From positions 788,214 to 852,213 of the forward strand of contig CAWGMA010000003.1 of the NCBI GenBank assembly GCA_963823555.1: 64,000 bases of DNA, given 5' to 3'. This stretch comes from Candidatus Eiseniibacteriota bacterium. Lineage in GTDB: Bacteria; Eisenbacteria; RBG-16-71-46; CAVPCR01. The first letter of the stretch is position 1. Each line of letters opens with the position of its first letter. The position numbers and the translations under genes are program-made. Of the stretch, positions 15,652 through 38,973 are shown piece by piece. The notes under the pieces are model-generated. The model saw nothing but the letters and a program-made list of their open reading frames with translations. It was not told the DNA's origin and did no database searches.

Positions 15652-18330
15652 ATGTCCCCAACCATGGAGTGGACCGGCACTCTCGATCGGCTGGTCAAGG
15701 AACCGGCGCTCGATCGGCATCTCCTGGATGCGCTCGATGAGCTGGTCGAGCAGGTGCCCCATGACGAGCTCGATCGGGTCGCGAACGCGGTCGAGGCGCG
15801 TCTTCCCGAACGCGGCATCCATCCCAGCCTGCACTACCTGCTGGCCCGGCTCACGGCGCGGCGCGGCGAACGGGAGGAGACGGCCGCCGGGCTGGAGCGG
15901 CTCCTCGAGCGCATGAATCAGGACGGCGACTTTCCATTGCTGGTCGAGGTCGGCCTCCGTAACGCCGACTGGCTTCCCGGCGACCGCTGGGTTCCGCTCC
16001 TGGTGCGAGCGGCCCGCATCGAGCCGGCGGCTGTCGACGATGGCGTGCTCGATGAGATGGTGGCCCGGTACCCGGAGGATCCGCGGCTGCACTGGATCAT
16101 CGGGTTGCGCGCTCTCGCCGCCCGACCCGGAGATCGCTCCGCCCTCGCCCATCTCGGCCGCGCCCTCACTCATCTCGCTCGTGAAGGCGATCCGGAGGAT
16201 CTCGAGGAAGCGGCGATCCCGATCGTCGACGCGCTCGATGGGGAGCTGGTCGACGATTTCATGCTCATGATCGCCGCGCTCATCGAACGTCATCGCTACG
16301 CCGACGCCCGCACCTACCTCGAGCTGGCACTCGACGCGCTCCTCGAGTCCGGGCAAGCGCAGGCGATCTGGGATCTCTTGAAACCGGCTCTCCTGCGCGG
16401 CGAAGAAAGCGCTGCATTGCGACCCGCTGCGCTCGCCGCCCTCGGTCACCTGCGCCCGGACATCCCGCGCCACGAGAAGGTCATCGCCGTTTCCGGGCTC
16501 GCCGATCGCGATGTATCGTTCGACAAGGCATTCACCCGCTACGCGCTGCTCATGGAGTTCCCACCCGGGGGCTATATCGAGCATGCCAGCTGGGGTGTGG
16601 GCGAGATCCTGGACCACGACGGCGAGAACGTGACCGTGCGTTTCGCGGGGAAGCCGGAGCATGTCTTCAAGCGGACGCTGGCCGAGCGCGCCCTGGAGCG
16701 GCGCGATCGAGACGACCTGCGAGTTCTTCTCGTCTTTGCCTCGGATCGCCTGGCCGCGATGCGCGAGCAGGATCCCGCCGGACTCGTGGCGGCCGCCTTG
16801 CGCTCGACCGGAGGCGAGGCCAAGCCACGCGACGTGAAGCGCCTGCTCTCGCCGGCGGTGATTCCGGCCGAGGGCTGGAGCGAGTGGTGGAAGAAGGCCA
16901 GGAAGATCCTGGAAGACGATGAGCGCATCGATCTCACGCAGAGCTTCCGGGATCTGATCCGGCTCGCCGACCAGCCGGGAGCGGAGAGTGGCGAGGTGCC
17001 GCTCCCCAACCTCGAGGATCGGGGCGATGTGGCGCGCCAGCTCAAGCTGCTCCGCCGTTTTCTCACGCAGCACCCCGACGCCACGGTGCGGGCCGGACGC
17101 GCCCACTCGCGCCGGCTCGAGCGCTGGCTCGAAACGCGCAAGCTCGCCGCCGAGGAGCGCATCCTGATCCTCATGCTCCTGGCTGAATGGGATCGGGAAG
17201 CGGAGGCCCGCCTGCGCGATGGGATCGCCGCGGCGGCGCGCTCGGGCTTCTCTCTTGCCGAGTTTCCCGAGACCAGCGATCAGCAGCGCATGCTCACCCT
17301 CGGTCTCTCCGCCAAGGACTGGCCGGCGGTGGCCATGGCGGCCCTCGACTCGAAGCAGCCCGCGATCCGCGACCGTGCGATCGCTGTGATCGAGGAGCGG
17401 CTGGGTCCGGATGCGGAAGCGCTCTATCGGAGCGTGCTCGAGGCGAGTCCGGCGCGCGGCGATGCCGTCGTGGAGGTGGTGCGCCGCGCCCTCGAGGAGG
17501 AGACCGCCGCCCTCAAGGCGATCCCGGCAGTGAATCTCTTCGTGGCGGCGCTGCGACTGCTCTCGGATCCGGAGCGCGAGACGCTGCGCAAGCAGGCCCA
17601 GGTGTTCCTCGATGGGGAGGGTCCGCTCTTCGCCCGCCTGTCCTCCGAACCGGCGGACAGCCCGGCTGCCGAGCAGGTGGAGCTGTCGCTTCTCAACTTC
17701 CGTGCTTCGGATCAGTACCTGTTCCCGATCCTCGCCTCGCTCGAGCAGATCTGGGGGCCATCGGTGATCGAGGTCATCCATCGCCGGCGCGAGCGCGAGA
17801 GCAAGAAGATCGCGGCCCGCATGGATGACGAGATCGGCGAGCTGCCGGTCGGTCTCATGACTCGAGCGAGCTTCGATGCCCTGCGGACCGAGATGGAGCG
17901 TGTGGACCTCGAGCTGCGCACAACGATCCCGCGGGCGATCCAGAAGGCGCGAGAACTCGGCGACCTGCGCGAGAACGGCGAATACGAATCGGCCAAGCTC
18001 AAGCAGCGGCAGGCCAGCGAGCGGCTCGCCCTCCTGATGCGGCAGATGGCCGACGCCCAGGTGATCGAGGATCTCCCGATCGACGACTCGCGCGTGGTGG
18101 CGGGGACCGAGGTCACGCTCGAGCCGGTGGACGGCGGGCCGAGCCTTTGCTACTGGGTGCTCGGCGATGGGGATTCTCGCCACGGATCGAACGTCATCTC
18201 CTACCGCGCCGATCTGGGACGCGCCCTCTGGCGCCGGCGTCCGGGCGATGAAGTCGATCTGCCGCTTCCCGCTGGGCTCCGGCGGGTCCGTATCGGCAAT
18301 GTGGTCAAACGCTTACCAGCGGCCGGCTGA
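15652..18330 (+). CDS. Large GreA/GreB family transcription elongation factor with ~730-aa N-terminal extension
   Basis: C-terminal ARELGDLRENGEYESAK and ISY...LGRAL...GDEV are GreA signatures; internal HASWGVGEI...VTVRF Tudor-like segment. Confidence 0.85.
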   Translation: MSPTMEWTGTLDRLVKEPALDRHLLDALDELVEQVPHDELDRVANAVEARLPERGIHPSLHYLLARLTARRGEREETAAGLERLLERMNQDGDFPLLVEVGLRNADWLPGDRWVPLLVRAARIEPAAVDDGVLDEMVARYPEDPRLHWIIGLRALAARPGDRSALAHLGRALTHLAREGDPEDLEEAAIPIVDALDGELVDDFMLMIAALIERHRYADARTYLELALDALLESGQAQAIWDLLKPALLRGEESAALRPAALAALGHLRPDIPRHEKVIAVSGLADRDVSFDKAFTRYALLMEFPPGGYIEHASWGVGEILDHDGENVTVRFAGKPEHVFKRTLAERALERRDRDDLRVLLVFASDRLAAMREQDPAGLVAAALRSTGGEAKPRDVKRLLSPAVIPAEGWSEWWKKARKILEDDERIDLTQSFRDLIRLADQPGAESGEVPLPNLEDRGDVARQLKLLRRFLTQHPDATVRAGRAHSRRLERWLETRKLAAEERILILMLLAEWDREAEARLRDGIAAAARSGFSLAEFPETSDQQRMLTLGLSAKDWPAVAMAALDSKQPAIRDRAIAVIEERLGPDAEALYRSVLEASPARGDAVVEVVRRALEEETAALKAIPAVNLFVAALRLLSDPERETLRKQAQVFLDGEGPLFARLSSEPADSPAAEQVELSLLNFRASDQYLFPILASLEQIWGPSVIEVIHRRRERESKKIAARMDDEIGELPVGLMTRASFDALRTEMERVDLELRTTIPRAIQKARELGDLRENGEYESAKLKQRQASERLALLMRQMADAQVIEDLPIDDSRVVAGTEVTLEPVDGGPSLCYWVLGDGDSRHGSNVISYRADLGRALWRRRPGDEVDLPLPAGLRRVRIGNVVKRLPAAG

Positions 18331-25353: not shown

Positions 25354-25502
25354 GATTCGAAGGAGCCCCGCTGGGCCGGGCCGGGCCGGGGATGGCCCGG
25401 GTTCCTGGCGGGTGTAGACTCAAAGGACGAGGAGTTCGCTCAAGGAGGGAGCGGCGCGGTTCCCATCCCCGCCGCACGTGCAGGGCAGCCGGGGGTGAAG
25501 CC

Positions 25503-26237
25503 ATGAGCAGCATTCAGCATATCGTGGATCGACAGCTGCGCCGATGGGAGGCGGAGCGCCTGGCCGCGCTCGAGGCGGTGCGGGGGGGGCGCGCGGCGCC
25601 TCGCGTCGAGCGCGTGCGGCCGACGGTGACGCTGTCTCGCCAGTCCGGGGTGCGAGGCGAGGCCATTGCGCGGGCTCTTGCCGAGCGCCTCGAGTACGGC
25701 GTGTTCGATCAGGAGATCATCGACTACATCGCCAGGAACAATGAAGTGCACCGGCAGATGTTGGAGATGCTGGACGAGCATACGGTATCCAGCATCAAGC
25801 TGTGGGCGGAAGGTATCGTGCGCGGGCAGCATGTCGATCAGACCGATTTCTTGCGCTTCCTGTCGAAGACGGTGCGTGCCATTCATGCCCATGGCGGAGC
25901 GGTGATTCTCGGGCGAGGCGCCAATTTCCTCCTGGCGGATGCCCGGGCCTTCCGCGTCCAGCTGGTGGCACCGCTCGTCGAGCGGATCAAGATCCTCATG
26001 GCCGAGCGAGATCTCGATGCGGAAACGGCTCGGCGCGAGATCATCGCCTCGGATGCGGCTCGCGGTGACTTCATTCGCCGCTTCTACCACGCCGACTGGT
26101 GTGATCCGGCGGCGTACGATCTCACGCTCAACGTGTCCGGGTTCGGGATCGACACAGCGGCCGCCATCATCGAGCAGGCGATGAAGAGCGTGGTGGCCGC
26201 CCGCTGGCCGGATGCGGTCGCTGCCCGCCGCGGCTGA
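25503..26237 (+). CDS. Cytidylate kinase-like family protein
   Basis: TLSRQSG..G..IA..LAERL, VILGRGA, SD..R..F, YDLTLN. Confidence 0.85.
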   Translation: MSSIQHIVDRQLRRWEAERLAALEAVRGGRAAPRVERVRPTVTLSRQSGVRGEAIARALAERLEYGVFDQEIIDYIARNNEVHRQMLEMLDEHTVSSIKLWAEGIVRGQHVDQTDFLRFLSKTVRAIHAHGGAVILGRGANFLLADARAFRVQLVAPLVERIKILMAERDLDAETARREIIASDAARGDFIRRFYHADWCDPAAYDLTLNVSGFGIDTAAAIIEQAMKSVVAARWPDAVAARRG

Positions 26238-26449
26238 TGGTCCGGAGAGCGATACCAGTCTTACGTGTAGTTATTGCCGTCACCTGCCCTGGGCTGTCAA
26301 AGTGATGGGGCCCCAGTCGAAGTTCCGGAGGGTGGGCGACGAGCTCGATCTCTCCTGCCCGAGTGCTTTCCGGACCCCTGCCCGCCTCCAGCGCCGGTCC
26401 ATCGCCCGGGGGGGGTAATCAGGCTCGACGCGTCCCGGAGGAGTTCCCC

Positions 26450-27289
26450 ATGCGTCCGATCTGGAAAGGCTATCTCAAGCTCAGTCTGGTCACGGTCCCG
26501 GTGAAGGTCTATTCAGCGACTTCTTCCCAGAGTCTCTCCTTCAATCAGCTTCATTCGACCTGCAACTCGCGCATCAATTACACGAAGACCTGTCCGATCC
26601 ACGGTCCGGTTCCGAGCGAGGAGATCGTCCGCGGCTACGCCTACGAGAAGGACCGTTACGTGATCATGGACGAGGAGGAGCTGGCGAAGGTCAGGCTCGA
26701 GAGCACCAAGGCGATCTCGATCGTGCGCTTTGTCGATGCGCGCGAGATCGATCCCATCTACTACGGATCGGCCTACTATCTCGAGCCGGACGGACCGATC
26801 GCCCGCGATGCCTACGCCACCCTGCGGGAGGCGATGACGGGCCATGTCGCCATCGCCAAGGTCGTGCTCCGAGGCAAGGAGGATCTGGTGGCCGTGCGCG
26901 CCGCGGACGGCGTGCTGGTGATGAGCGCGCTCTACTATGCCGACGAGGTCCGCGGGATCGAGGAGCTCGAGGAACTCAAGGCGACGGCGAAGCCGGATGG
27001 CGAGGCGATCCAGCTCGCGCGCCAGCTCATCGGCGGCCTGTCCGGTCCTTTCGATCCCGCGCTGTACAAGGACGAGTACCGAGAGCAGTTGCTGGCCATC
27101 ATCCAGGAGAAGATCGAGGGCCGGGAGGCGGTGGCGGCGGAAGCGGGACCGGAGCCTCTGCGCGTCGTCAACCTCATGGAAGCGCTCAAGAAGTCACTGG
27201 CGGCCGGAGCCGAGGCGCCGCCGCGAGTGAAGGCGGCGCCGGCCAAGGAAGTTCCCGACGAGCCGGTGCGCAAGCAGGCGAGTCAGTAG
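26450..27289 (+). CDS. ku: Non-homologous end joining protein Ku
   Basis: MRPIWKG.L.LSLVTVPVK.Y, FNQLH, IVRGY, IDPIYY...YYL.P, YKDEYRE, VVNLMEALKKS; GGAGGAG RBS. Confidence 0.95.
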   Translation: MRPIWKGYLKLSLVTVPVKVYSATSSQSLSFNQLHSTCNSRINYTKTCPIHGPVPSEEIVRGYAYEKDRYVIMDEEELAKVRLESTKAISIVRFVDAREIDPIYYGSAYYLEPDGPIARDAYATLREAMTGHVAIAKVVLRGKEDLVAVRAADGVLVMSALYYADEVRGIEELEELKATAKPDGEAIQLARQLIGGLSGPFDPALYKDEYREQLLAIIQEKIEGREAVAAEAGPEPLRVVNLMEALKKSLAAGAEAPPRVKAAPAKEVPDEPVRKQASQ

Positions 27290-27311
27290 GAATCACCGCG
27301 AAGGAGGGCGC

Positions 27312-28451
27312 GTGGTTCGCGATCAACGGCCGTGCGAAACGGATCAGCCCACGGGAGGCCCGGGTTCGGGGACGCTCGAGAACTGCGTCTTCGTCTTCAC
27401 CGGTCGCCTGCATACGCTGTCGCGGGCATCGGCCGCCCATCTTGTGCGCCAGGCTGGAGGGATCGTCCGCGGCACGGTAACCCGTGACACGGAGTATCTG
27501 GTTGCCGGTGAGGCTCATCACGACGTTGCCGGCCGCGGCGCAGGACGTCCGGCGCCCGCGAGCCGGAAGCTGCTGGCCGCCGAGCGTCTGCGCGCCGCCG
27601 GAGCCGAGATCCAGATTCTGCGAGAGCGGGAGTTCCTGCGCCTGATCGGGACCGAGGCCGTGGCCGAACATGCCGGCCAGCACTACGCGGCCGATGACGT
27701 GCGAGCGCTCTTCGACCTTGGAGCCGAAGAGCTGCGCCAGCTCGAACGCCTGCGACTCGTGCGGCCCGTGCTGCGGACGCATTCCGACCGCTACTACACC
27801 TTCAAGGACCTGCTCGTCTTGAAGCAGGTGCGCGAGGCGCTCGACCACGGGATCAGTCTCGCCCAGGCAGCGCGGCGCATCCGGCTCGAACGCCGCGGCC
27901 AGATGAGCCTCCACTTTGAAACCATCGGGCCGCGCATCATCCCGCTGCGCCAGCCCGGGGAGGAGCACCTGTCCGCGGAGGATTGGTACGAGATCGGCGT
28001 CGAGCGGGACGACGATCCCGAGGATATCCTGCCCGCGATGCAGGCGTACGAGCGCGCGCTCGAGCTCGATCCGCACCATGTCGGTGCCCTCGTCAACCTG
28101 GGGAATGTCCACTACCGCCTCGGGCAGATCGACGAGGCGCGGCGGCTCTACGAACGGGCACTGGCCGTCGATCCGCGGAATCCCAACGTGCACTACAACC
28201 TGGGGAATGTGTACGACGATCTCGAGGAGTTCCGTGTCGCCATTCGCTTCTTCGAATCGGCTCTCCGACTCAATCCCAACAACGCCGATGCCCATTTCAA
28301 CCTCGGACTGGCTCATGATCGCGTCGGCAATGTGGAGAAGGTGCGCCAGCACATGCAGGACTACCTGCGCCTGGCCCCGGAGGGCGAGATGGCGGAGGTG
28401 GCCGCGGAGTACTTGAGTCTCACCGCCTGTGAGGACGGGGCTCCGGCCTAG
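27312..28451 (+). CDS. BRCT + MerR-like HTH + TPR protein
   Basis: VFVFTGRL..LSR..A...VRQAGG.V...VTRDTEYLVAG (LigA-type BRCT); ELRQLERLRLVRP...RYYTFKDL (MerR-like); tandem TPRs (ALVNLGNVH, VHYNLGNVY, AHFNLGL); AAGGAGG RBS. Confidence 0.85.
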   Translation: MVRDQRPCETDQPTGGPGSGTLENCVFVFTGRLHTLSRASAAHLVRQAGGIVRGTVTRDTEYLVAGEAHHDVAGRGAGRPAPASRKLLAAERLRAAGAEIQILREREFLRLIGTEAVAEHAGQHYAADDVRALFDLGAEELRQLERLRLVRPVLRTHSDRYYTFKDLLVLKQVREALDHGISLAQAARRIRLERRGQMSLHFETIGPRIIPLRQPGEEHLSAEDWYEIGVERDDDPEDILPAMQAYERALELDPHHVGALVNLGNVHYRLGQIDEARRLYERALAVDPRNPNVHYNLGNVYDDLEEFRVAIRFFESALRLNPNNADAHFNLGLAHDRVGNVEKVRQHMQDYLRLAPEGEMAEVAAEYLSLTACEDGAPA

Positions 28452-28493
28452 CGCACCGCGGAGTGCTCAAGGGATGCGGAAGGGGGAGAGCGG

Positions 28494-29990
28494 ATGAGGC
28501 GTGCTAGCCACGCGGCGGGCGCCGCCAGCCGCGGGTGTCCAGGCAGGGTCGCCGTCGTCGGCCTGGTCTTCCTTCTCGGCGGGGCCTCCACTCCTGTCAT
28601 GGCCGGTGATGGCGAGGAGGCGCCGGCCGTTCGCGTCAACCGCTATCTGGTCGCGCACGAATTCGATCGCGCCGCCGGAGTCTGCCGCGACCAGGTCCGT
28701 GACGATCGATCGGATCCCGCCCTGCGCGCCTCGTGCGCCCAGACCCTGGTGATGCGCGACCGCGTCTGCCTGCCGGCTCCGCCCGACGCCGAGGCGCTCC
28801 ATGAAAGCGCGGCCGGGACCAGGAACTGCGATGCGAGCTTCCTCTCCCGGGCGGCGCAGGATTCGATCGCGGGTTTGCTGGCGGTCGAGGTCCAGCTGGC
28901 GCCCGACGACATCCAGAGCTATCTGCTTTCCGTCGATCACGAGATCCGCTTCGGGACCCCGGATCGTCTGCGCCTTGCCCTCGCGGGAATGCGACGGTTC
29001 GAGGCCTCGGACATCCATGACGAGCTCCTGGTCCGACTCCAGACGATCCAGAGGCCGGGTATGGCCGCCGTGGCCGCGCGCGCGGCTCTCGAATCGGGAC
29101 CGGACCCGCTCGGCTGTGACGCCGCCCTCAAGATCGCCGGCAGCCTGCTCCAGGCGGGTGACTTCGATCGGGCGCTCGCCGGCCTGGGTCGAGCACCGGC
29201 CGATTCGTCCTGCGTGCGCCAGAGAACCGCTATGGCCGCCTCGATTCTGACGGTCGCCGGAAGGCATCGGGAGCTCTGGGAGCTCACGCGCAGAGCCCCT
29301 TCCGGTATCGCCACCATCGAGTACTACCGCTACGTGTTGCTATCTTCGCTCGCCGCGGCCCATTTCGATTCGTCGCTCGCCCGGAACCGTCTCGACTACG
29401 AGGAGGCGAACCAATCGTCCTATCCGGAGCTGGCGGGCACATTCCTCGACGACTTGCGCGCCCTGCTCGATGAGCCGGCGGCACCCGGCGAGGCCTGGGC
29501 CGAGCTCGCAGAGCGCGATCTCGTTGCCGGCGTTCGCTTCGGCGAAGTGCGCGTCTTGCTCCGCTCCCTGGCCCTCCGCCGCAATCCGCGACTCGGATCC
29601 GTCGCGCTCGATCAGGCGAACGATCTGGCCAGCCGGAGCCAGCTCCGGTCGGCCGGCGAAGTCCTGGAAGATGTTGCCGGTGGCCGGCAACCCGAGCTCG
29701 ATCGGCGCTGGGATCCACGCCGTCCGGAATACCTCCGCCAATCCGCAGTTTACTACTTCAAGGCCGATGACGATATCTCGTGCCGGGAAGTCCTGGATGC
29801 GATCGACGAACCGAACGCGACCGACCGGCTTCTGGCCGGAGCGGCCGCGCTTCGCGCCGAGGACTGGGCGGTGGCCAAGAGCCATCTGGAGCAGGTGAAG
29901 ACCCCCGCGGCGGACGTCGGGCAGGTCGAAACCGCGAACCGTTTGCTGGCGCTGATCCCGGCTCGGGCACATGACGATGCCTCGCCGTGA
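28494..29990 (+). CDS. Hypothetical exported helical (TPR-like) protein
   Basis: Long ORF with signal-like N-terminus; helical Ala/Leu-rich sequence; no family recognised. Confidence 0.6.
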   Translation: MRRASHAAGAASRGCPGRVAVVGLVFLLGGASTPVMAGDGEEAPAVRVNRYLVAHEFDRAAGVCRDQVRDDRSDPALRASCAQTLVMRDRVCLPAPPDAEALHESAAGTRNCDASFLSRAAQDSIAGLLAVEVQLAPDDIQSYLLSVDHEIRFGTPDRLRLALAGMRRFEASDIHDELLVRLQTIQRPGMAAVAARAALESGPDPLGCDAALKIAGSLLQAGDFDRALAGLGRAPADSSCVRQRTAMAASILTVAGRHRELWELTRRAPSGIATIEYYRYVLLSSLAAAHFDSSLARNRLDYEEANQSSYPELAGTFLDDLRALLDEPAAPGEAWAELAERDLVAGVRFGEVRVLLRSLALRRNPRLGSVALDQANDLASRSQLRSAGEVLEDVAGGRQPELDRRWDPRRPEYLRQSAVYYFKADDDISCREVLDAIDEPNATDRLLAGAAALRAEDWAVAKSHLEQVKTPAADVGQVETANRLLALIPARAHDDASP

Positions 29991-31905: not shown

Positions 31906-34758
31906 TCAGCCGGACTCCACCAGGACGCGGCTCGTGTTTCCCTGCTTCGAGACCACGATACGCGCCGGCATCCGCTGCGCGAGCTCGGGGATGTGGGTGA
32001 TGATGCCGACCGTGCGCCCGCGGCCATAGAGCGCTTCGATGGCGCCGGCGACGGCATCGAGATGCTCGGCGTCCAGAGTGCCGAAGCCCTCGTCGAGGAA
32101 CAGGCTCTCGAGCGGAACGGATCCCGAGCCCCCGGCCAGCTCGGTCAGGCGCTCGGCGAAGGCGATGGCGAGCGCGAGCGAGGCGGTGAACGTCTCGCCG
32201 CCGGAGAGCGTGCGCACGGAACGACGTTCATCGGCATTGGCGTGATCGATGATGAAGAAGCGCCGATCCTCGCTCATGAGCGAGAACGTCACATGGGGGA
32301 AGCCCTTCAAGTGGAGATTGGCATCGGCGGCCAGAACCTCGATCGCCTCCTCGTGGAGATAGTTGACGAAGCGGTCGGCTTGCAGATCCCGGGCCAGCTG
32401 GCCGGCGAGCGCGGTTTCCCCCCGCACCGCCTCGAGCTCGGCCTCGATGGCGGCTCGACGCTCGATCGCTCGCTCGATGTCCCCGAGTTCACGGGCGGTG
32501 ATCGCCTTCTTCTCGGCGAGATCGCGTTGCTCGCGGACGGCCGCCGCCCGGCGCTCCTCCACTGCCTGGCGTTCGACCTCGCCGCCCTCCGATTGCGGGA
32601 GCTCGAGGCCTGAAGCCCGGGCATGCGCCACGAGGGTGGCACGCAGAGCCGCTCCGGTCTCCTCGGCGGCAAGCGTCGCCTGCACGGCTTCCTGGCCGCG
32701 CGCCCGGCGCTCTCCGAGCGCCGCCCGGGCGGCGATCTTCTCCGCCTCCTTCGCCGCCAGCTTCTCTTTCACTCCCTCGCGCCTCGAGACCAGGGCGTCG
32801 CGTTTCTTTCGGGCGTTCCGCGCCGCATCGAGGGCGGTGCGCACGGCACGGACGGGATCCTCGGTGGGGCCGGTCGCTGCGGCCAGGCGCTGGTGGAGTT
32901 CCCGGGCGGCGGCCTCGTCCTCCCCGCGCCGGCGCGCACGGTCTTCTGCGGCGCGGGTATCGGCGTCGAGCTCGGCGAGCAGGCGATCGTGCACGTGGCG
33001 GGCGGTCAAGAGATCCTCGGCCCGCTGCCGTGCCGCTGCCGCGGCGTCCCGGGCCGCGGCCTCGAGCACCCCGATATCAGCCAGCGCGCGCTCCAGCTCC
33101 GCGAGCGTCCGGTCGGTGGGCGGGGCGCCCAGGTAGCGCTCGAGCTCGGCCTGAGCGCGGTCTTCCTCATCGCCCAGTCGAGAGATGTCGCGCGTGATCT
33201 CCTTGGCCTTCTTCTCCTCTCCTCCGATCGAGGTTTCGATTCGGGTGGCGTCGCGAGCCGCGGTCGCGGCCTGTTCCCGGGCCAGGGTGAGCGCCGCTTC
33301 GGCGCTCGCCACCGCCGTCGCCGCCGAGGGAACAGCCGGCACGCGAGCCACGGACTGCGCGCAGACGGGGCAGGGTTCACCGGGCTTGAGATGCGCTCTC
33401 AGCTCGTGCGCGGCATGGGCGCGCCGGAGCCGGGCGAGCTCTTCCTCGGCACGTGTCACTTCGGCCTTCGCCGCGATCTCGGCCGCGCGTGCCGTCTCGA
33501 GCCGGGTGCGGAGGTCCTCGAGGCCGGCGCGCGTCGCTTCCAGGAGGCGTTCCCTTTCGCCGCGCTCCGTGGCGAGGCGGCGCCGGCGGCGCTCGGACTC
33601 GAGGTTCTGCACAATCTCAGCCGGCGTTTTGAAACGCGCGGCGATTTCCCCCAGCGCCTCCTGGGCGGTGGCGGCGACCCGGGCGGCTTCCGCGCTCGCA
33701 CTCTCGGCGCGATTCACCGTGGTCGTGGCGGCGTCGATCTTCTGCTCCAGCTCGGCGAGCCTGGCTGCTGCCTTGGTCGCCTCGGCCTCGGCTCGCGCGA
33801 GGGCTGCCGTGATCTCGGCGTAGCGCACGGCGTCCCCCTCGGCTCGCTCGAGGGCAAGGTAGCGCTCCTCGTCATGCGGGATACGAGAGAGTTCGGCATC
33901 GATCTCGCTGAGCGCGCGCGAATCGGTCTCGAGGCCGCGGTCGATCTCGCTGAGCTGAGCCTCCACCTCGCGCTCGGCCGCCGCGTGCTCGGTGGCCGAG
34001 CGGCGCAGGCGATTCACCTCGGTCAGGGCTCGAGCCAGGATCTCGGCCTCCCGCGCCAGCTCGGTCCATTGGCGCTCGGCTTCCTCGCTCGAGCGAGCAA
34101 GCGCTGTGAGCTGGTCGAGCCTGGTCTCGTGCTCGGCGCGGGCTTCGGCGGTGGCGAACGCGAGCTGCTCACGTTCCCCCTCGAGATCTCGCCCCCGCTG
34201 CTCACGCGCCGCGAACCGCGAGCGAGCCAGCTCGCGCATCCGCCCGTAGATCTGCGTGCGCAGGAGCCGGCTCAGGACCTCGGTCGTCTGTGCCGGCTCG
34301 CCCTTCAGGAACTGATCGAACTCTCCCTGGGGCAACACGACGGCGCGGATGAACGATTCGTAGTCGAGCCCGATCAGTCGCTCGACCTCTCGTTCGACCG
34401 CGGCCGCCTTGCCGGCCAGCGCCTGCCAGTCACCACCCTCCTTGCGCTCGAGGGCGGCCTTGGTCAGGACGCTCTTGGTGGTGCGCGAGGAGCTGCGCAC
34501 CGCGCGATAGACGGTTTCGCCGACCGTGAAGTCGAGCCGCACCCGCATCGCCGGCTGCCCGCGCGACACGAGTTGATTGATGTCCCTGTTGAGGCGCGGC
34601 GCGCGGCCGTAGAGGGCATACACCATGGCGTCGAGGAGAGAGGTCTTGCCCGAGCCGGTGGCCCCGGTGATGGCGAAGAGATCGAGCGTGCGGAAATCGA
34701 TCGTGGTACGCGTGCGAAAGCTCGTGAAGCCCTCGAGCTCGAGCTCGAGCGGGCGCAT
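31906..34758 (-). CDS. sbcC: SbcC/Rad50 SMC-like ATPase
   Basis: GATGSGKTS, LPQGEF, coiled coil with CPVC zinc hook, LSGGE, FLDEGFG, ITH. Confidence 0.95.
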   Translation of the reverse strand: MRPLELELEGFTSFRTRTTIDFRTLDLFAITGATGSGKTSLLDAMVYALYGRAPRLNRDINQLVSRGQPAMRVRLDFTVGETVYRAVRSSSRTTKSVLTKAALERKEGGDWQALAGKAAAVEREVERLIGLDYESFIRAVVLPQGEFDQFLKGEPAQTTEVLSRLLRTQIYGRMRELARSRFAAREQRGRDLEGEREQLAFATAEARAEHETRLDQLTALARSSEEAERQWTELAREAEILARALTEVNRLRRSATEHAAAEREVEAQLSEIDRGLETDSRALSEIDAELSRIPHDEERYLALERAEGDAVRYAEITAALARAEAEATKAAARLAELEQKIDAATTTVNRAESASAEAARVAATAQEALGEIAARFKTPAEIVQNLESERRRRRLATERGERERLLEATRAGLEDLRTRLETARAAEIAAKAEVTRAEEELARLRRAHAAHELRAHLKPGEPCPVCAQSVARVPAVPSAATAVASAEAALTLAREQAATAARDATRIETSIGGEEKKAKEITRDISRLGDEEDRAQAELERYLGAPPTDRTLAELERALADIGVLEAAARDAAAAARQRAEDLLTARHVHDRLLAELDADTRAAEDRARRRGEDEAAARELHQRLAAATGPTEDPVRAVRTALDAARNARKKRDALVSRREGVKEKLAAKEAEKIAARAALGERRARGQEAVQATLAAEETGAALRATLVAHARASGLELPQSEGGEVERQAVEERRAAAVREQRDLAEKKAITARELGDIERAIERRAAIEAELEAVRGETALAGQLARDLQADRFVNYLHEEAIEVLAADANLHLKGFPHVTFSLMSEDRRFFIIDHANADERRSVRTLSGGETFTASLALAIAFAERLTELAGGSGSVPLESLFLDEGFGTLDAEHLDAVAGAIEALYGRGRTVGIITHIPELAQRMPARIVVSKQGNTSRVLVESG

Positions 34759-35933
34759 CAGGCCGTCTCCTCGGTGTGGGCTTCGGTCAGGAGCTCGCGA
34801 AAGAGAGCCAGGAGCTCCGGGCCGGGCGGCTTGCCGTAACGCTGCTCGTGATAGCTCTGGAAGAGATCGGCCGGGTCGAGACCGCTGGCCAGGCGCCGGG
34901 GCCGGTCCTCGCGCGCCTCGACGGGCTCGGTTTCGAGCAGGACCTGCACCGCGTTGGGCAGGAGCTTTCGCACCTCGTCGGCGAGCCCGGGCTCGGTGGA
35001 GGCGGCGGGGACCACGACCCGCAGGTAATCGTCTCCGAGCCCGGCGTCCGCGGCGGCGGCCACGAGTTCCGGCAAGGTGCCACGCACCTCGCGGAGGCCG
35101 CGTCCCGCCCGGAGCGGGATGGGTGTGATGCGGGCCGGGGTACGGGGCCCCGTCACCTCGACCAGGACGACGCTCTTCTCCTGCCCCTTCTCGCCGAAGT
35201 CGAGGGCCAGGGGCGATCCGGCGAAGCGCGCCGGGGAGGGGGCGGCCACCGCCTGGGGGCGGTGGATGTGGCCGAGGGCGAGGTAGTGGAGGTTCCTGGG
35301 CAAGAGGGCCGCGGGGATCGCGTAGCTGTCGCCGATGTGGATCGCGCGCTCGCCACCGCCGACCATCGAGCCGTCCACGTGCAGGTGGCCGAGGAGCAGG
35401 CGGATCGGATGGGCGGCCAGAGCCTGGGCGAAGGCATCGAGGATCCTCGCCATGCGCTCCGCATAGCGCACGAAGACGGTGGCGGTCTCCTCCATCAGGG
35501 CGTTGGCCTCCACCATCTTGTGCTCGGGAATGAAGGGCACGGCTCCGATCGCCGCTTTCTCTCCGCGCGGCGATTCGATCACGAAGATCCCGCCGGCGTC
35601 GGGACGGGCGAAATCGCTGCGCACATGGACATCGATCACCTCGAGCAGCGACGAGACCGCCGCCAATTTCCGCTCGTGATCGTGATTTCCAGCGATGACG
35701 ACGGCGGGGATGCGGGCGCGACCCAGATCGCGGAAGAAGTCATAGACGATCTTCTCGGCCTCGGCACCCGGAGCTGCCGATTCGAACACGTCCCCGGTGA
35801 CGAGCAGGCAATCGACGGCCTCGCGCCGGCCGATGGCGAGGATCTCGGCGAGCACCTGCCGGTGCTCGTCGGCGCGGCTCCGGCCGCCGATCGTCTTGCC
35901 CACATGCCAGTCCGAGGTGTGGAGGAAGCGCAT
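34758..35933 (-). CDS. sbcD: SbcD/Mre11 nuclease
   Basis: HTSDWH, GDVF, GNHD, GHLH, LGHIH; stop overlaps the sbcC start. Confidence 0.95.
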   Translation of the reverse strand: MRFLHTSDWHVGKTIGGRSRADEHRQVLAEILAIGRREAVDCLLVTGDVFESAAPGAEAEKIVYDFFRDLGRARIPAVVIAGNHDHERKLAAVSSLLEVIDVHVRSDFARPDAGGIFVIESPRGEKAAIGAVPFIPEHKMVEANALMEETATVFVRYAERMARILDAFAQALAAHPIRLLLGHLHVDGSMVGGGERAIHIGDSYAIPAALLPRNLHYLALGHIHRPQAVAAPSPARFAGSPLALDFGEKGQEKSVVLVEVTGPRTPARITPIPLRAGRGLREVRGTLPELVAAAADAGLGDDYLRVVVPAASTEPGLADEVRKLLPNAVQVLLETEPVEAREDRPRRLASGLDPADLFQSYHEQRYGKPPGPELLALFRELLTEAHTEETA

Positions 35934-35945
35934 GGTTGGATGAAC

Positions 35946-37652
35946 CTAGCGTTCGAGCCGATCGAAGAGGTCGGAGATGGGGGTCGTGACCGCGGCGGGC
36001 GCCGCCTCGTCCGGTCGCGTCGCCCAGGCCGGGAAGGGGAAACGCACGACGAGGGGGATCGGGATTTCGGGCTGGAGGACGATCATCGTGCCCGGTTTCA
36101 AGATCGCCGCTCGCTGCCGGGCCGTGGCCGGAAGGAAGCTGTACTCGTCGCGACCGGCCTCGGCGGCATCGAGCCGGCCGACGACGCGGAGCGCCGAGTT
36201 GACGACCACTCGCCGCTCCACCTCGCTCGCTGTCTGCTGGGCGCCGATCAAGATGATGCCGAGACTGCGCCCGCGCTCGGCGATGTCGAGGATGATCTCC
36301 TTGATCGGACTCCAGCCCTCGCGCGGCGCGAGCTTGTTGAGCTCGTCGAGGAGCACGAAGGAGAAGGGCTCGCGGGCTCCCAGGCTCTCCTTCTCCTCGA
36401 ACATGCGCTTGAGGACGACGCCGACCACGAAGCGCTGGGCGCGCTCGTGCAGGTTGTGAATGTCGATGACGGTGACCTGGGCGCGGCCGAGATCGATGCG
36501 ATGCTCGGTGGTGCGCTCCACTCCTTGCCCGCGGAGCAGGTGCCCGACGCGGCTCGCCGCTGCCTCGAGCCGGCGCACGAAGGCGGAGATGGTGCCGGGG
36601 GCGGTGGCGCCCACCCAGGCGTCGACGCGCGCCTCGCAGAGGTTGCGCACCGCCTCAACCAGCTCGTGGAAGGTGTTGACGCGCTCGTCGCCGATCGCGA
36701 TCCAGGGATCCTCGGCATTGCCGGTGTCGGCGGCCGCCCGCTCGAGCTGCGCCTCGACGCGGTTGATGAGGGACTCGAGGTGTCCGGCCTCGGAGTCGGC
36801 ATCGGCAAAGAGAAAGCGCAGGAAGCGTTCGCGAGCGAACTCGCGTAGCGTCCAGTAGAAGGGAGTGACACCCTCCAGGCGCGACCCCGTGTCGGGGATC
36901 TGCGGCCCGGTGGCCCCGCGGCGCGTGGGAGCGAAGAGGCTCACGCTCTGGAACGGGCCGGCGGGAAGCCCGAGCGCGGAATAGGCATCGCGCGCCGCCG
37001 CGTCGAGCCGAGCGTTCGGGCGGTCGAGAAAGAGGAGATCCTCGCCCTTCACGTTGAAGACGATGGCCCGGGCGTTGGTGGTCGCCGTGCCGAGCACCGG
37101 GGAGTGGAAGAGGTTGTAGAGGAGGAACGTGGCGTAAGTGGTCTTGGTCGCCACGCCCGAGATGCCGGAGATGTTGACGTGAGCGCCGCGGGTGCCGTCG
37201 AGGAAGTCGAGGTTGGCGTAGACCGGCTGGTCGTCGCGGCCGATCCCGAGGGCAAGGCGGCGTGCGGGCGCCATCTTGTCGAAGAAGAGGGCGACATCGC
37301 GCTCCTCGACCGCCAGGAAGACATCCTCGCCCGGGTGGGGCGGGACGAAGATCTCCGGTTCGACGCGGGTGACGGCGACGTGGGCGGCAAGGGACAGCTC
37401 GGCCGGCAGGAGGCCGTCGGTGACCAGGAAGACATCGGAGTCGAACTGCGTCCCCTCGTGTCGGGCGCGGACGAGATCGACCAAGCCGTAGAGATGGATC
37501 ACGGTGCCGTCAGGGAGCGCGGTGCGGACGAGGACCACGTCGTCGAGCTGGAGATAGGCGTCGCGGCGCACGGCCACCCAGAAGCCGAGCGGGGTCGAGT
37601 CCTGGGTGCCGAGGACCTGGCCGACGAGCGGCTTGCGGCTTGCGGCTCTCAT
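35946..37652 (-). CDS. herA: HerA family ATPase/helicase
   Basis: N-terminal HAS-barrel-like region, Walker A variant GISGVATKT, VLLDELNK, RGRSLG, GAQQ. Confidence 0.9.
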   Translation of the reverse strand: MRAASRKPLVGQVLGTQDSTPLGFWVAVRRDAYLQLDDVVLVRTALPDGTVIHLYGLVDLVRARHEGTQFDSDVFLVTDGLLPAELSLAAHVAVTRVEPEIFVPPHPGEDVFLAVEERDVALFFDKMAPARRLALGIGRDDQPVYANLDFLDGTRGAHVNISGISGVATKTTYATFLLYNLFHSPVLGTATTNARAIVFNVKGEDLLFLDRPNARLDAAARDAYSALGLPAGPFQSVSLFAPTRRGATGPQIPDTGSRLEGVTPFYWTLREFARERFLRFLFADADSEAGHLESLINRVEAQLERAAADTGNAEDPWIAIGDERVNTFHELVEAVRNLCEARVDAWVGATAPGTISAFVRRLEAAASRVGHLLRGQGVERTTEHRIDLGRAQVTVIDIHNLHERAQRFVVGVVLKRMFEEKESLGAREPFSFVLLDELNKLAPREGWSPIKEIILDIAERGRSLGIILIGAQQTASEVERRVVVNSALRVVGRLDAAEAGRDEYSFLPATARQRAAILKPGTMIVLQPEIPIPLVVRFPFPAWATRPDEAAPAAVTTPISDLFDRLER

Positions 37653-38647
37653 GGTGTCTCCTGGCGTGAGAGATGAGCGGTGATGGCGCGGTGGATGAGC
37701 GTGCTGTCGCCGAGGCGATGGCGGAGAAGCTTCTCCAGACCACCCAGGGGAACGAGGTTCTGTGGCGAGCGCGAGTCGCGCTCACGCGTCGATGCGCAGC
37801 GGACCAGAGCGGCGGCGGAGCGGTCGGCGATCGCTCGCGCAGCCTCGATCCCGACGTCACTCCCACATTCGAGCCGGGCGATGCCGGCCAGCTCGTGATC
37901 AGCGGGGCCGCCCAGGCCGAGCCGCAGGTACCAGGAGTAGCGCTGGTTCTTGTCGAGTATCGCAAATATCGGCGTGCGCTGGCCGGGGCGGAGCCGGGGC
38001 AGGAGCGCGAGGTCGTCGGGAGCGAGATACGAGCGATGGAGGCTCTTGACGAAGCCGATGAGCGGCGTGCCCGTGCGCGCAAGATAGGCGAGGGGCCCGT
38101 CGGCGACGATGAGGGCTCCCGGCGGCAGGGCAGCCCTTCCGTTGCCCGGGTCAGCGAGTGAGCGCGCCAGATCGTCCTCGGCCCGGCGCATCTCGGTCTG
38201 CAATCCCTGAAGGGGTGCGGTGGGATCGGTATCCGGCACCGCGATCGGAGCGTAGGCAAGGTGGCTCCCGTCTCCCGAGATCGGGACCAGGAGCGGATCG
38301 CGCTCGGTGCCGTCTCCCAGCACGAGCACGCGGCGGGATACGAGCGCGATCATCTCGGGGATGCCGTGGCCCGCGCCGAGCGCACCGACCGCGTAGCTTC
38401 CGAGGAGGCCGTAGACCGGACCCCGGCCATCACGCCTGCCGATGACGCGGGCATCGACCCGTCGCACCCCATCGATGAAGACCAGCGCCGACGGTTCGCC
38501 GGCACAGGCATCGGGGTCGGCAGCGGCCCAACGGGCTGACTCGACGCCGATATCGACCGGAGGCGCAGCCATCGCCTCGTCGATGGCGACGGCCGGACCC
38601 AGATCGCTGGCCCAGGGGTCGAGTTTGAGATCCACGGCCGTTGGCAT
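37649..38647 (-). CDS. nurA: NurA family nuclease
   Basis: FIDGVRR, ADGPL, GFVKS, RSPQNL motifs; stop overlaps the herA start; start placed at ATG 38647. Confidence 0.8.
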   Translation of the reverse strand: MPTAVDLKLDPWASDLGPAVAIDEAMAAPPVDIGVESARWAAADPDACAGEPSALVFIDGVRRVDARVIGRRDGRGPVYGLLGSYAVGALGAGHGIPEMIALVSRRVLVLGDGTERDPLLVPISGDGSHLAYAPIAVPDTDPTAPLQGLQTEMRRAEDDLARSLADPGNGRAALPPGALIVADGPLAYLARTGTPLIGFVKSLHRSYLAPDDLALLPRLRPGQRTPIFAILDKNQRYSWYLRLGLGGPADHELAGIARLECGSDVGIEAARAIADRSAAALVRCASTRERDSRSPQNLVPLGGLEKLLRHRLGDSTLIHRAITAHLSRQETP

Positions 38648-38973
38648 GATGTTGGAGGCTAGCAGATGGCTTGAAACTGACCTAGGATGAGGGCGATGGT
38701 ATCCAAATGGATAGTCGGTTGCCAAGCAGACTTTCAGTGGGTCCCGGCTCTCTGCCGGCCCGGCCCGGAACTAGGTCGAGTGCCCATCGGAACGTCCTTC
38801 TCCTGATCCACGATCCACGCGGCGTGCCCGGAGGCTCGCTCGGCGGTACTTTTCTGGCGCGTCGAGGCAATGGGACCGGGCGACGCGGTGGTTCCGCGCT
38901 CTGGGCCGTCGAGTGGAAGGGACGCTGAGTCCGATCGACGAAGTCACGATTAGTCCACGCGTAGATTCGACCG

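Follow-up and report, generated by a model that had tools for sequence, protein, structure and literature searches.

The stretch of DNA analyzed here, called the window throughout, comprises 64,000 nucleotides of contig CAWGMA010000003.1 from Candidatus Eiseniibacteriota bacterium (assembly GCA_963823555.1; genome G000 below). Our subject is the gene that directly follows ku in the window and encodes a protein of 379 amino acids (aa) joining a BRCT domain, a MerR-type winged helix-turn-helix and an array of TPRs (Table 1). The upstream gene product is a bacterial Ku by two profiles (PF02735, E = 1.8e-46 in a Pfam scan of the window's proteins; TIGR02772, 293.3 bits against a cut-off of 150), and a search of the whole genome returned this single ku match. 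A sequence-only reading of the locus had described the 22-nt gap with its own AAGGAGG ribosome-binding site (RBS) and the three-part architecture, and both descriptions hold. The coupling is operon-like. No sigma-70-like promoter was found across positions 26100-28700, and the one terminator-like site in that interval is at chance level.

Table 1. Features of the ku operon, in window positions
Feature	Position	Strand	Basis
ku RBS GGAGGAG	26437..26443	+	sequence
ku, 279 aa, sole ku of the genome	26450..27289	+	PF02735, TIGR02772
Ku C-terminus: conserved NLMEALKKSL helix, then 29-aa weakly basic tail	27170..27286	+	comparison of Ku tails
RBS AAGGAGG inside the 22-nt gap between ku and the next gene	27301..27307	+	sequence
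BRCT-MerR-TPR gene, 379 aa, GTG start, single copy in the genome	27312..28451	+	open reading frame, Pfam
LigA/RFC1-type BRCT, about residues 22-113, with T30, G31, R38, K86	27375..27650	+	Pfam, PDB sequence matches, model, conservation
MerR-type winged helix-turn-helix, residues 124-196, CvkR/McdR descent, degenerate recognition helix	27681..27899	+	Pfam, PDB matches, model, profile comparison
QMSLHF, residues 197-202, GQ-strand remnant of a CvkR-type dimerization domain, low-confidence linker	27900..27917	+	model, profile comparison, motif
Four TPRs and capping helix, residues 222-373, acidic, conserved groove Asn and Asp/Glu	27975..28430	+	model, conservation, fold match

Domains of the protein encoded beside ku

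Pfam profiles score above their cut-offs on the 379-aa protein, the BRCT just so (PF00533, 22.1 bits against 21.3) and the winged helix at 31.6 bits against 21.6 (MerR_1), with TPRs matched from residue 237 onward. An AlphaFold2 model built from a 44-row alignment has three confident domains connected by flexible joints (mean predicted local distance difference test, pLDDT, 87; predicted template modeling score 0.49), namely, a BRCT fold at residues 26-112, a winged helix at 124-196 and four TPRs with a capping helix at 222-373; pLDDT falls below 50 in the linker at residues 198-201 and 204-208. The closest named relative (L068, from Candidatus Eisenbacteria/Eiseniibacteriota) is 72% identical, and P0024 belongs to the same group.

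The BRCT domain is of the LigA/RFC1 type in both profile and fold (PRK06195, E = 2.9e-13 over residues 20-112; model topology), and its best PDB sequence matches are the RFC1 BRCT (E = 1.3e-5) and ligase BRCTs. Among 52 members compared, T/S is found at position 30 in 41, G31 in all 52, R38 in 50 and K86 in 39. These residues, which we take to form a phosphate pocket, align with the same residues in the BRCT of the genome's own LigA. The RFC1 BRCT is reported to prefer 5'-phosphate DNA ends (PMC9293009).

Pfam profiles and fold agree on the TPR part, which superposes on consensus and OGT TPRs with a root mean square deviation of about 2 Å and which alone returned matches in two fold searches with the window protein. 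It is acidic (14 K/R against 31 D/E). Across 181 members N262 is conserved at 97-99%, N296 at 96-97%, D/E303 at 100% and D326 at 96-98%, equally in copies linked and unlinked to ku; from the TPR consensus we place all four at presumed groove positions. We infer that the ligand is a basic, extended peptide, for which the Ku tail is the obvious candidate, and the equal conservation in unlinked copies would allow others.

The window Ku itself lacks the extended basic tail of many bacterial Ku proteins. Its 29-aa tail holds 5 K/R and 4 D/E, as short and weakly basic as the sequence-only reading had it, while 73 of the 77 Ku tails compared have at least 8 K/R. The three closest tails, those of the window Ku, L068 and L247, are all weakly basic, and that of L248 is intermediate. 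The helix that precedes the tail is conserved; in other Ku proteins this is the segment that recruits LigD.

LigD and the linkage of the family to ku

The LigD-family matches of the genome fall on contigs C4 and C2 only. The window thus holds no ligD, as had been claimed, but the further claim that the gene stands beside ku instead of LigD has to be given up. At about 441.5-444.3 kb of C4 lies a 925-aa frame in phosphoesterase-ligase-polymerase (PE-LIG-POL) order that scores above the cut-offs of PF13298 (LigD_N), PF01068 (ATP-dependent ligase) and TIGR02778 (ligD_pol). It contains QKH...HYDFRLE, ELKHDG, EGIVSK, WIKVK and DLD, with one further pattern unmatched; we take these to be the catalytic motifs of the phosphoesterase, the ligase (ELKHDG) and the polymerase (DLD). 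Completeness of the genome is 92.5%. Contig C2 encodes a second ATP-dependent DNA ligase, which stands alone and has about 540 aa, at about 436-438 kb (L001, L007). LigD polymerase-domain matches were also found in four of five further family-bearing genomes, the close relatives G276 and G137 included. At all of the 30 best-scoring ku loci of the same phylum, a divergent ligD lies upstream of ku and a co-oriented family gene downstream (28 with MerR and TPR matches, 1 cut at a contig end and 1 with a TPR match only); the family gene thus accompanies both Ku and LigD and does not take LigD's place. Where ligD lies elsewhere, as in the window genome, L068, L247 and L248, ku keeps the family gene.

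The gene belongs to a (BRCT)-MerR-GQxxLxF-TPR family. We searched 524 genomes from four phylum samples for Ku and for this family and compared coordinates. Pooled, a family match is present in 177 of the 193 ku-positive genomes and lies directly downstream of ku in 91. The sequence-only reading had proposed a little-described Ku partner or regulator forming a non-canonical end-joining module. The conserved tie to ku in four sampled phyla stands, while the LigD-free module does not, given LigD in the window genome and in its nearest relatives G276 and G137 and beside ku at the 30 loci.

In the window's own phylum (151 genomes), 49 genomes have both genes, 7 have ku only, 1 has the family only and 94 have neither. 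Of the 49, 43 carry the family gene on the strand of ku and no more than 1.5 kb downstream of the Ku core (in one of these, G051, with a ligase gene in between), 4 more have it within 10 kb and 2 on separate contigs. The sole family-bearing genome among the 95 ku-negative ones, G137, encodes LigD and is truncated there by a contig end. In the phylum of a Polyangiaceae genome (121 genomes), the family occurs in 18 of 18 ku-positive genomes, adjacent in 7, and alone in 33; in that of a Bryobacteraceae genome (151 genomes), 49 genomes have both, 9 ku only and 15 the family only, with 28 adjacent; and in that of G277 (101 genomes), the family is found in 61 of 61 ku-positive genomes, adjacent in 13, and alone in 13. 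One of the 28, G302, is an unpublished genome. The family cut-offs were chosen after viewing the tables, at E up to 1.2e-36 in the own phylum (34 genomes with weaker TPR-type matches dropped), 4.8e-16 in the Polyangiaceae phylum (10 dropped) and 1.6e-12 in the Bryobacteraceae phylum (8 dropped, including the ku-adjacent G411). The "family only" counts are inflated, and some unlinked co-occurrences may be paralogues, because the MerR-region profile also detects TPR-less paralogues: 10 of 10 suspected ones that were fetched had no in-frame TPR.

Beyond these samples, ku lies directly upstream of the gene in both close metagenome relatives (L247 and L248, among five loci returned), neither with ligD in the locus, and in the cultured betaproteobacterium Variovorax sp. 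WDL1 (L272, NZ_LR594690.1), ku (WP_068674332.1) overlaps a MerR-GQ-TPR gene (WP_068674336.1) by 4 nt. The latter strain is a possible test host. Plasmid searches returned, besides Variovorax WDL1, only stand-alone BRCT matches, and a profile search of 1.84 billion representatives was dominated by generic long TPR proteins and uninformative. Several genomes have one ku-adjacent copy and one unlinked copy. Five genomes tested from the lineages with unlinked copies in the named-genome scan (below) all have ku elsewhere. At three loci (L149, L151 and L152, from G021, G099 and G051), ku forms an operon with a stand-alone ligase domain and a BRCT-MerR-TPR gene of the long form (470-510 aa). At two others (L153 from G003 and L154 from G091), ku is present as a tandem pair, and the stretch fetched contains no family gene. 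A correlation of identities between Ku and its partner (Spearman 0.79, 62 pairs) was not used, being confounded by shared ancestry.

Most ku-adjacent members group together in a tree of 111 rows, in a clade of 50 rows that lacks the BRCT and spans several phyla. A single grouping of all 25 ku-adjacent rows in a 50-row set was rejected (approximately unbiased test, p = 2.75e-75; four state changes), and the family tree has at least four separate regions with ku linkage. As the tree is unrooted, adjacency would be either ancestral with repeated loss or regained. The BRCT was considered as a conserved core of the family and rejected, being absent from the main ku-linked clade; it is an add-on of some lineages.

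The MerR module and the linker motif

MerR_1 and the model topology identify the central domain as a MerR-type winged helix, with TnrA/GlnR as best PDB matches. Family members fall into long forms, which by sequence retain a CvkR-type dimerization domain, and short forms such as the window protein, which is without most of it, only the GQ strand being left. A profile of the long forms and the TPR-less paralogues aligns to CvkR (7xn2) over positions 3-128, the GQ strand included (E = 5.1e-13); with other MerR structures the match is confined to the winged helix. By this comparison the module descends from CvkR/McdR-type repressors. CvkR is described as a repressor with 33% identity to McdR that uses three strands and one helix, all within residues 81-132, to dimerize and has helix-2 residues R19, R20, Q23 and Y24 as proposed DNA contacts; a six-residue mutant covering R19, R20 and Q23 lost binding (PMC9938897). 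McdR is reported to regulate division and DNA-repair genes (PMC9040748).

These contact residues are kept in 8, 11, 8 and 10, respectively, of 12 TPR-less paralogues. The window protein has A138, E139, R142 and Q143 instead, and the 79 ku-adjacent long forms have mostly E/P, A/S, R and A/S, with Arg at the R20 position in 9 of 79, compared to 11 of the 12 paralogues. The recognition helix varies among orthologues, and the window protein has a net charge of 0 over residues 124-180. Conserved residues in the winged helix are R142, G148, P152 and F164. A simple enrichment scan of 67 linked ku upstream regions found no palindrome common to them, only promoter-like words; the best spaced palindromes with clear excess occur in 8-13 of the 67. 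The lost contact residues and the missing shared palindrome weaken the case for sequence-specific regulation, and they would only weaken it, because other MerR proteins use other residues for DNA contact. TPR-less CvkR/McdR-like proteins with an intact RRQLQYW-type helix (L226-L235 and L245) occur in the myxobacterial and acidobacterial samples; none of five that were scanned scored above an NCBIfam family cut-off. Many loci (L020, L049, L054, L155, L199 and L202 among them; uncounted) have a TAnnnT-like element a few bases before the ku ATG and no RBS, which suggests leaderless ku transcripts.

The remnant of the dimerization domain in the window protein reads GQMSLHF. Its QMSLHF lies in the flexible segment noted above and matches the pattern of published hexamer clamp-binding motifs (bioRxiv 10.64898/2026.05.27.728225). 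Of 54 unlinked short forms, 52 have the pattern Q[LM]x[LMF]x[LF], which is seen in only 29 of the 142 long forms and in a single one of the 12 TPR-less paralogues; the chance rate is 0.019 per 379 aa in long frames of the window genome. A hydrophobic residue occupies position +2 in 132 of the long forms versus 1 of 57 short forms. Among the three ku-adjacent short forms, the window protein alone has the strict hexamer (L242 has the pentamer QLSLF and L068 QMTIHF), and in the main ku-linked clade it occurs in only 8 of 79. The G and Q come from a structural strand, being invariant in the TPR-less paralogues and aligned with the CvkR dimerization region. We considered the invariance of Q as proof of clamp binding and rejected it, Q being equally invariant in those paralogues. 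A self-dimerization role for the strand would be as likely as clamp docking because G and Q are so inherited and the short forms are mostly one clade.

Interpretation and comparison with known systems

The explanation we favor, at about an even chance, is that the 379-aa protein acts as a noncatalytic accessory adaptor of Ku/LigD end joining, with LigD encoded elsewhere in the genome. In its favor are the linkage and co-occurrence with ku, the conserved groove residues of the acidic TPR part, the BRCT pocket residues and the loss of CvkR-type contact residues from the winged helix. We infer its steps as follows. The protein would be coexpressed with Ku. Its acidic, Asn-lined TPR groove would bind a repair partner by a peptide that is extended and basic, for which the Ku tail with its Lys and Arg residues is the likeliest choice. 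The degenerate winged helix would bind DNA without sequence specificity, or else bind protein. In the window lineage, the added BRCT could grip 5'-phosphorylated ends or nicks and so offset the weakly basic Ku tail, and the adaptor would then hold Ku-loaded ends or pass them to LigD. Several findings weigh against this scheme. The weakly basic tail itself weakens the tail-binding step for the window copy. The BRCT may compensate for it in the window lineage only, as the BRCT-bearing relatives G021, G051, G099 and G083 have basic Ku tails (a general role of BRCT gain as a Ku-tail substitute was rejected on these counterexamples), and its absence from the large ku-adjacent clade makes end gripping lineage-specific. 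The window protein belongs to a separate clade of 27 rows, whose members are short and for the most part carry a BRCT and are not linked to ku. Among co-occurring genomes, 86 of 177 lack direct adjacency; a family match, TPR-less paralogues counted in, is present in 62 ku-negative genomes of the 524; and the genomes counted include kin, which are not independent, and many incomplete ones. A scan of 80 loci in named genomes, mostly Vicinamibacterales, Bryobacteraceae and Polyangiaceae, had ku nearby in only 2, the flanks examined reaching up to 6 kb and being shortened in some cases by contig ends. Finally, a dedicated regulator would give the identical operon linkage, and the MerR module descends from proven repressors.

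Such a regulator is the main rival, possible although on balance unlikely. In this case a CvkR/McdR-type protein with a TPR sensor would control ku, and the often divergent ligD promoter, perhaps by sensing Ku or another damage-response protein. Its ancestry fits, since long-form profiles match CvkR over the winged helix and the dimerization domain including the GQ strand, and the related repressors CvkR and McdR include, in McdR, a regulator of DNA-repair genes (PMC9938897, PMC9040748). So do the divergent ligD and ku at all 30 loci, the conserved winged-helix residues and the copies distant from ku or in ku-negative genomes, which would fit a wider regulon. Set against these are the CvkR contact residues, lost in the window protein and in most ku-adjacent long forms but kept in TPR-less paralogues, the variable recognition helix, the lack of a common palindrome upstream of the 67 linked ku genes and the loss of most of the dimerization domain from the window copy. 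In a fairly improbable alternative, the protein serves as an adaptor for DNA damage in general: it would use QxxLxF to dock on the beta sliding clamp and bring TPR-bound partners to nicks, gaps or collapsed forks, ku being one client or a co-regulated neighbor. The hexamer's abundance in unlinked short forms, its presence in the window protein, its scarcity in long forms and TPR-less paralogues, the QLSLF of the separately placed L242, the low chance rate, the fit to published motifs (bioRxiv 10.64898/2026.05.27.728225) and the low-confidence linker speak for it; the inherited GQ strand, which may still serve self-dimerization, the near-single clade of short forms and the rarity of the strict hexamer among ku-adjacent short forms and in the main ku-linked clade speak against it.

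It is very improbable that the gene is functionally unconnected with end joining and merely inherited beside ku. Whole lineages do hold it away from ku: Vicinamibacterales copies have no ku link and adjoin genes that we read from their motifs as glucokinase and DEAD-box helicase, the Bryobacteraceae and Polyangiaceae copies of the named-genome scan are likewise unlinked, and repair-unrelated neighbors accompany the gene in close kin too. Yet the gene adjoins ku in all four phylum samples and in a betaproteobacterium, its order and orientation being fixed; these cases come from at least four regions of the tree, and co-presence with ku is near perfect in the own phylum. Scarcely credible is a role as LigD substitute, in which the protein would bring a different ligase, for instance LigA, to the ends bound by Ku. 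The distance of ligD from ku here, the LigA-like BRCT and the second ATP-dependent ligase on C2 would suit this idea, but the genome has a full LigD with catalytic motifs, four of five further family-bearing genomes have LigD polymerase-domain matches, ligD flanks ku at every one of the 30 relatives' loci, all with the gene as well, and Ku retains its conserved C-terminal helix. An improbable extension of the adaptor reading would combine several of these elements into three-protein end joining in these phyla, in which a repressor-derived adaptor binds Ku by its TPRs and the BRCT-bearing short forms grip 5'-phosphate ends and dock on the beta clamp by a repurposed dimerization strand. If true, this would couple Ku/LigD repair to replication-derived breaks.

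The surroundings of the operon include a second break-repair module 3.5 kb away, a minus-strand string of four genes (window 31906-38725) in which SbcD/Mre11 and SbcC/Rad50 genes (Pfam) come after 358-aa and 568-aa open reading frames (ORFs). The two ORFs presumably correspond to NurA and HerA, names taken from motifs only; the HerA-like 568-aa ORF matched no Pfam or NCBIfam family. Upstream of ku lies a cytidylate-kinase-like gene (PF13189, about 25500-26237, plus strand), kept in two of six close relatives' loci. Downstream of the BRCT-MerR-TPR gene, a 498-aa ORF (28494-29990, plus strand) has no family above cut-off and a hydrophobic N-terminal stretch, may be exported and has a homologue in the same place in four of the six. 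Farther off, an 892-aa protein (15652-18330, plus strand) has a GreA/GreB domain solely at its C-terminus, its long N-terminal part being without assignment.

A third gene that comes after ku in several phyla that are abundant and for the most part uncultured, as well as in a Variovorax strain in culture, is a candidate accessory factor or dedicated regulator that is directly testable, and if it boosts Ku/LigD it could improve genome editing based on nonhomologous end joining (NHEJ). We found no description of the gene in the open-access literature searched, and a term search of two NHEJ papers (PMC6379672 and bioRxiv 10.1101/2023.09.30.560322) found no mention of TPRs. What is new here is the refutation, for this genome, of a gene standing in for LigD, the counts showing large unlinked lineages, the descent from CvkR/McdR accompanied by lost recognition residues, and the motif shift of the short forms. 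A MerR-type repressor was apparently reworked here into an adaptor, with recognition residues lost, TPRs added, the dimerization domain deleted and a BRCT gained.

Each part of the protein has a known counterpart from which it departs. With CvkR (Alr3614, PDB 7xn2) and mycobacterial McdR (Rv1830), the family shares the winged helix and, in long forms, a beta-rich dimerization domain ending in the GQ strand; unlike them it has a C-terminal TPR array and a degenerate recognition helix, no operator was found upstream of the linked ku genes, and the window copy has lost most of the dimerization domain and gained a BRCT. The BRCT has its best sequence matches in RFC1 and the NAD+-dependent ligase LigA and keeps their T-G, R and K pocket residues, but it is fused to a winged helix and TPRs, not to an enzyme or clamp loader, and is a putative DNA-binding domain. 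QMSLHF fits the hexamer clamp-binding motifs of Hda (QLSLPL), Pol IV (QLVLGL) and Pol III alpha (QVELEF) and lies in a low-confidence linker, but this putative clamp-binding motif descends from a structural strand of the CvkR fold. The four TPRs and cap, with conserved groove Asn and Asp/Glu, resemble OGT-like and consensus arrays, but no catalytic domain accompanies them. Bacterial NHEJ is described as a two-component Ku and LigD system (PMC6379672). With such systems, of Ku homodimer and PE-LIG-POL LigD, our case shares a single ku with a conserved C-terminal helix, a full LigD and, in relatives, divergent ligD and ku; it differs in the weakly basic Ku tail and the placement of ligD on another contig here and in the co-oriented third gene after ku.

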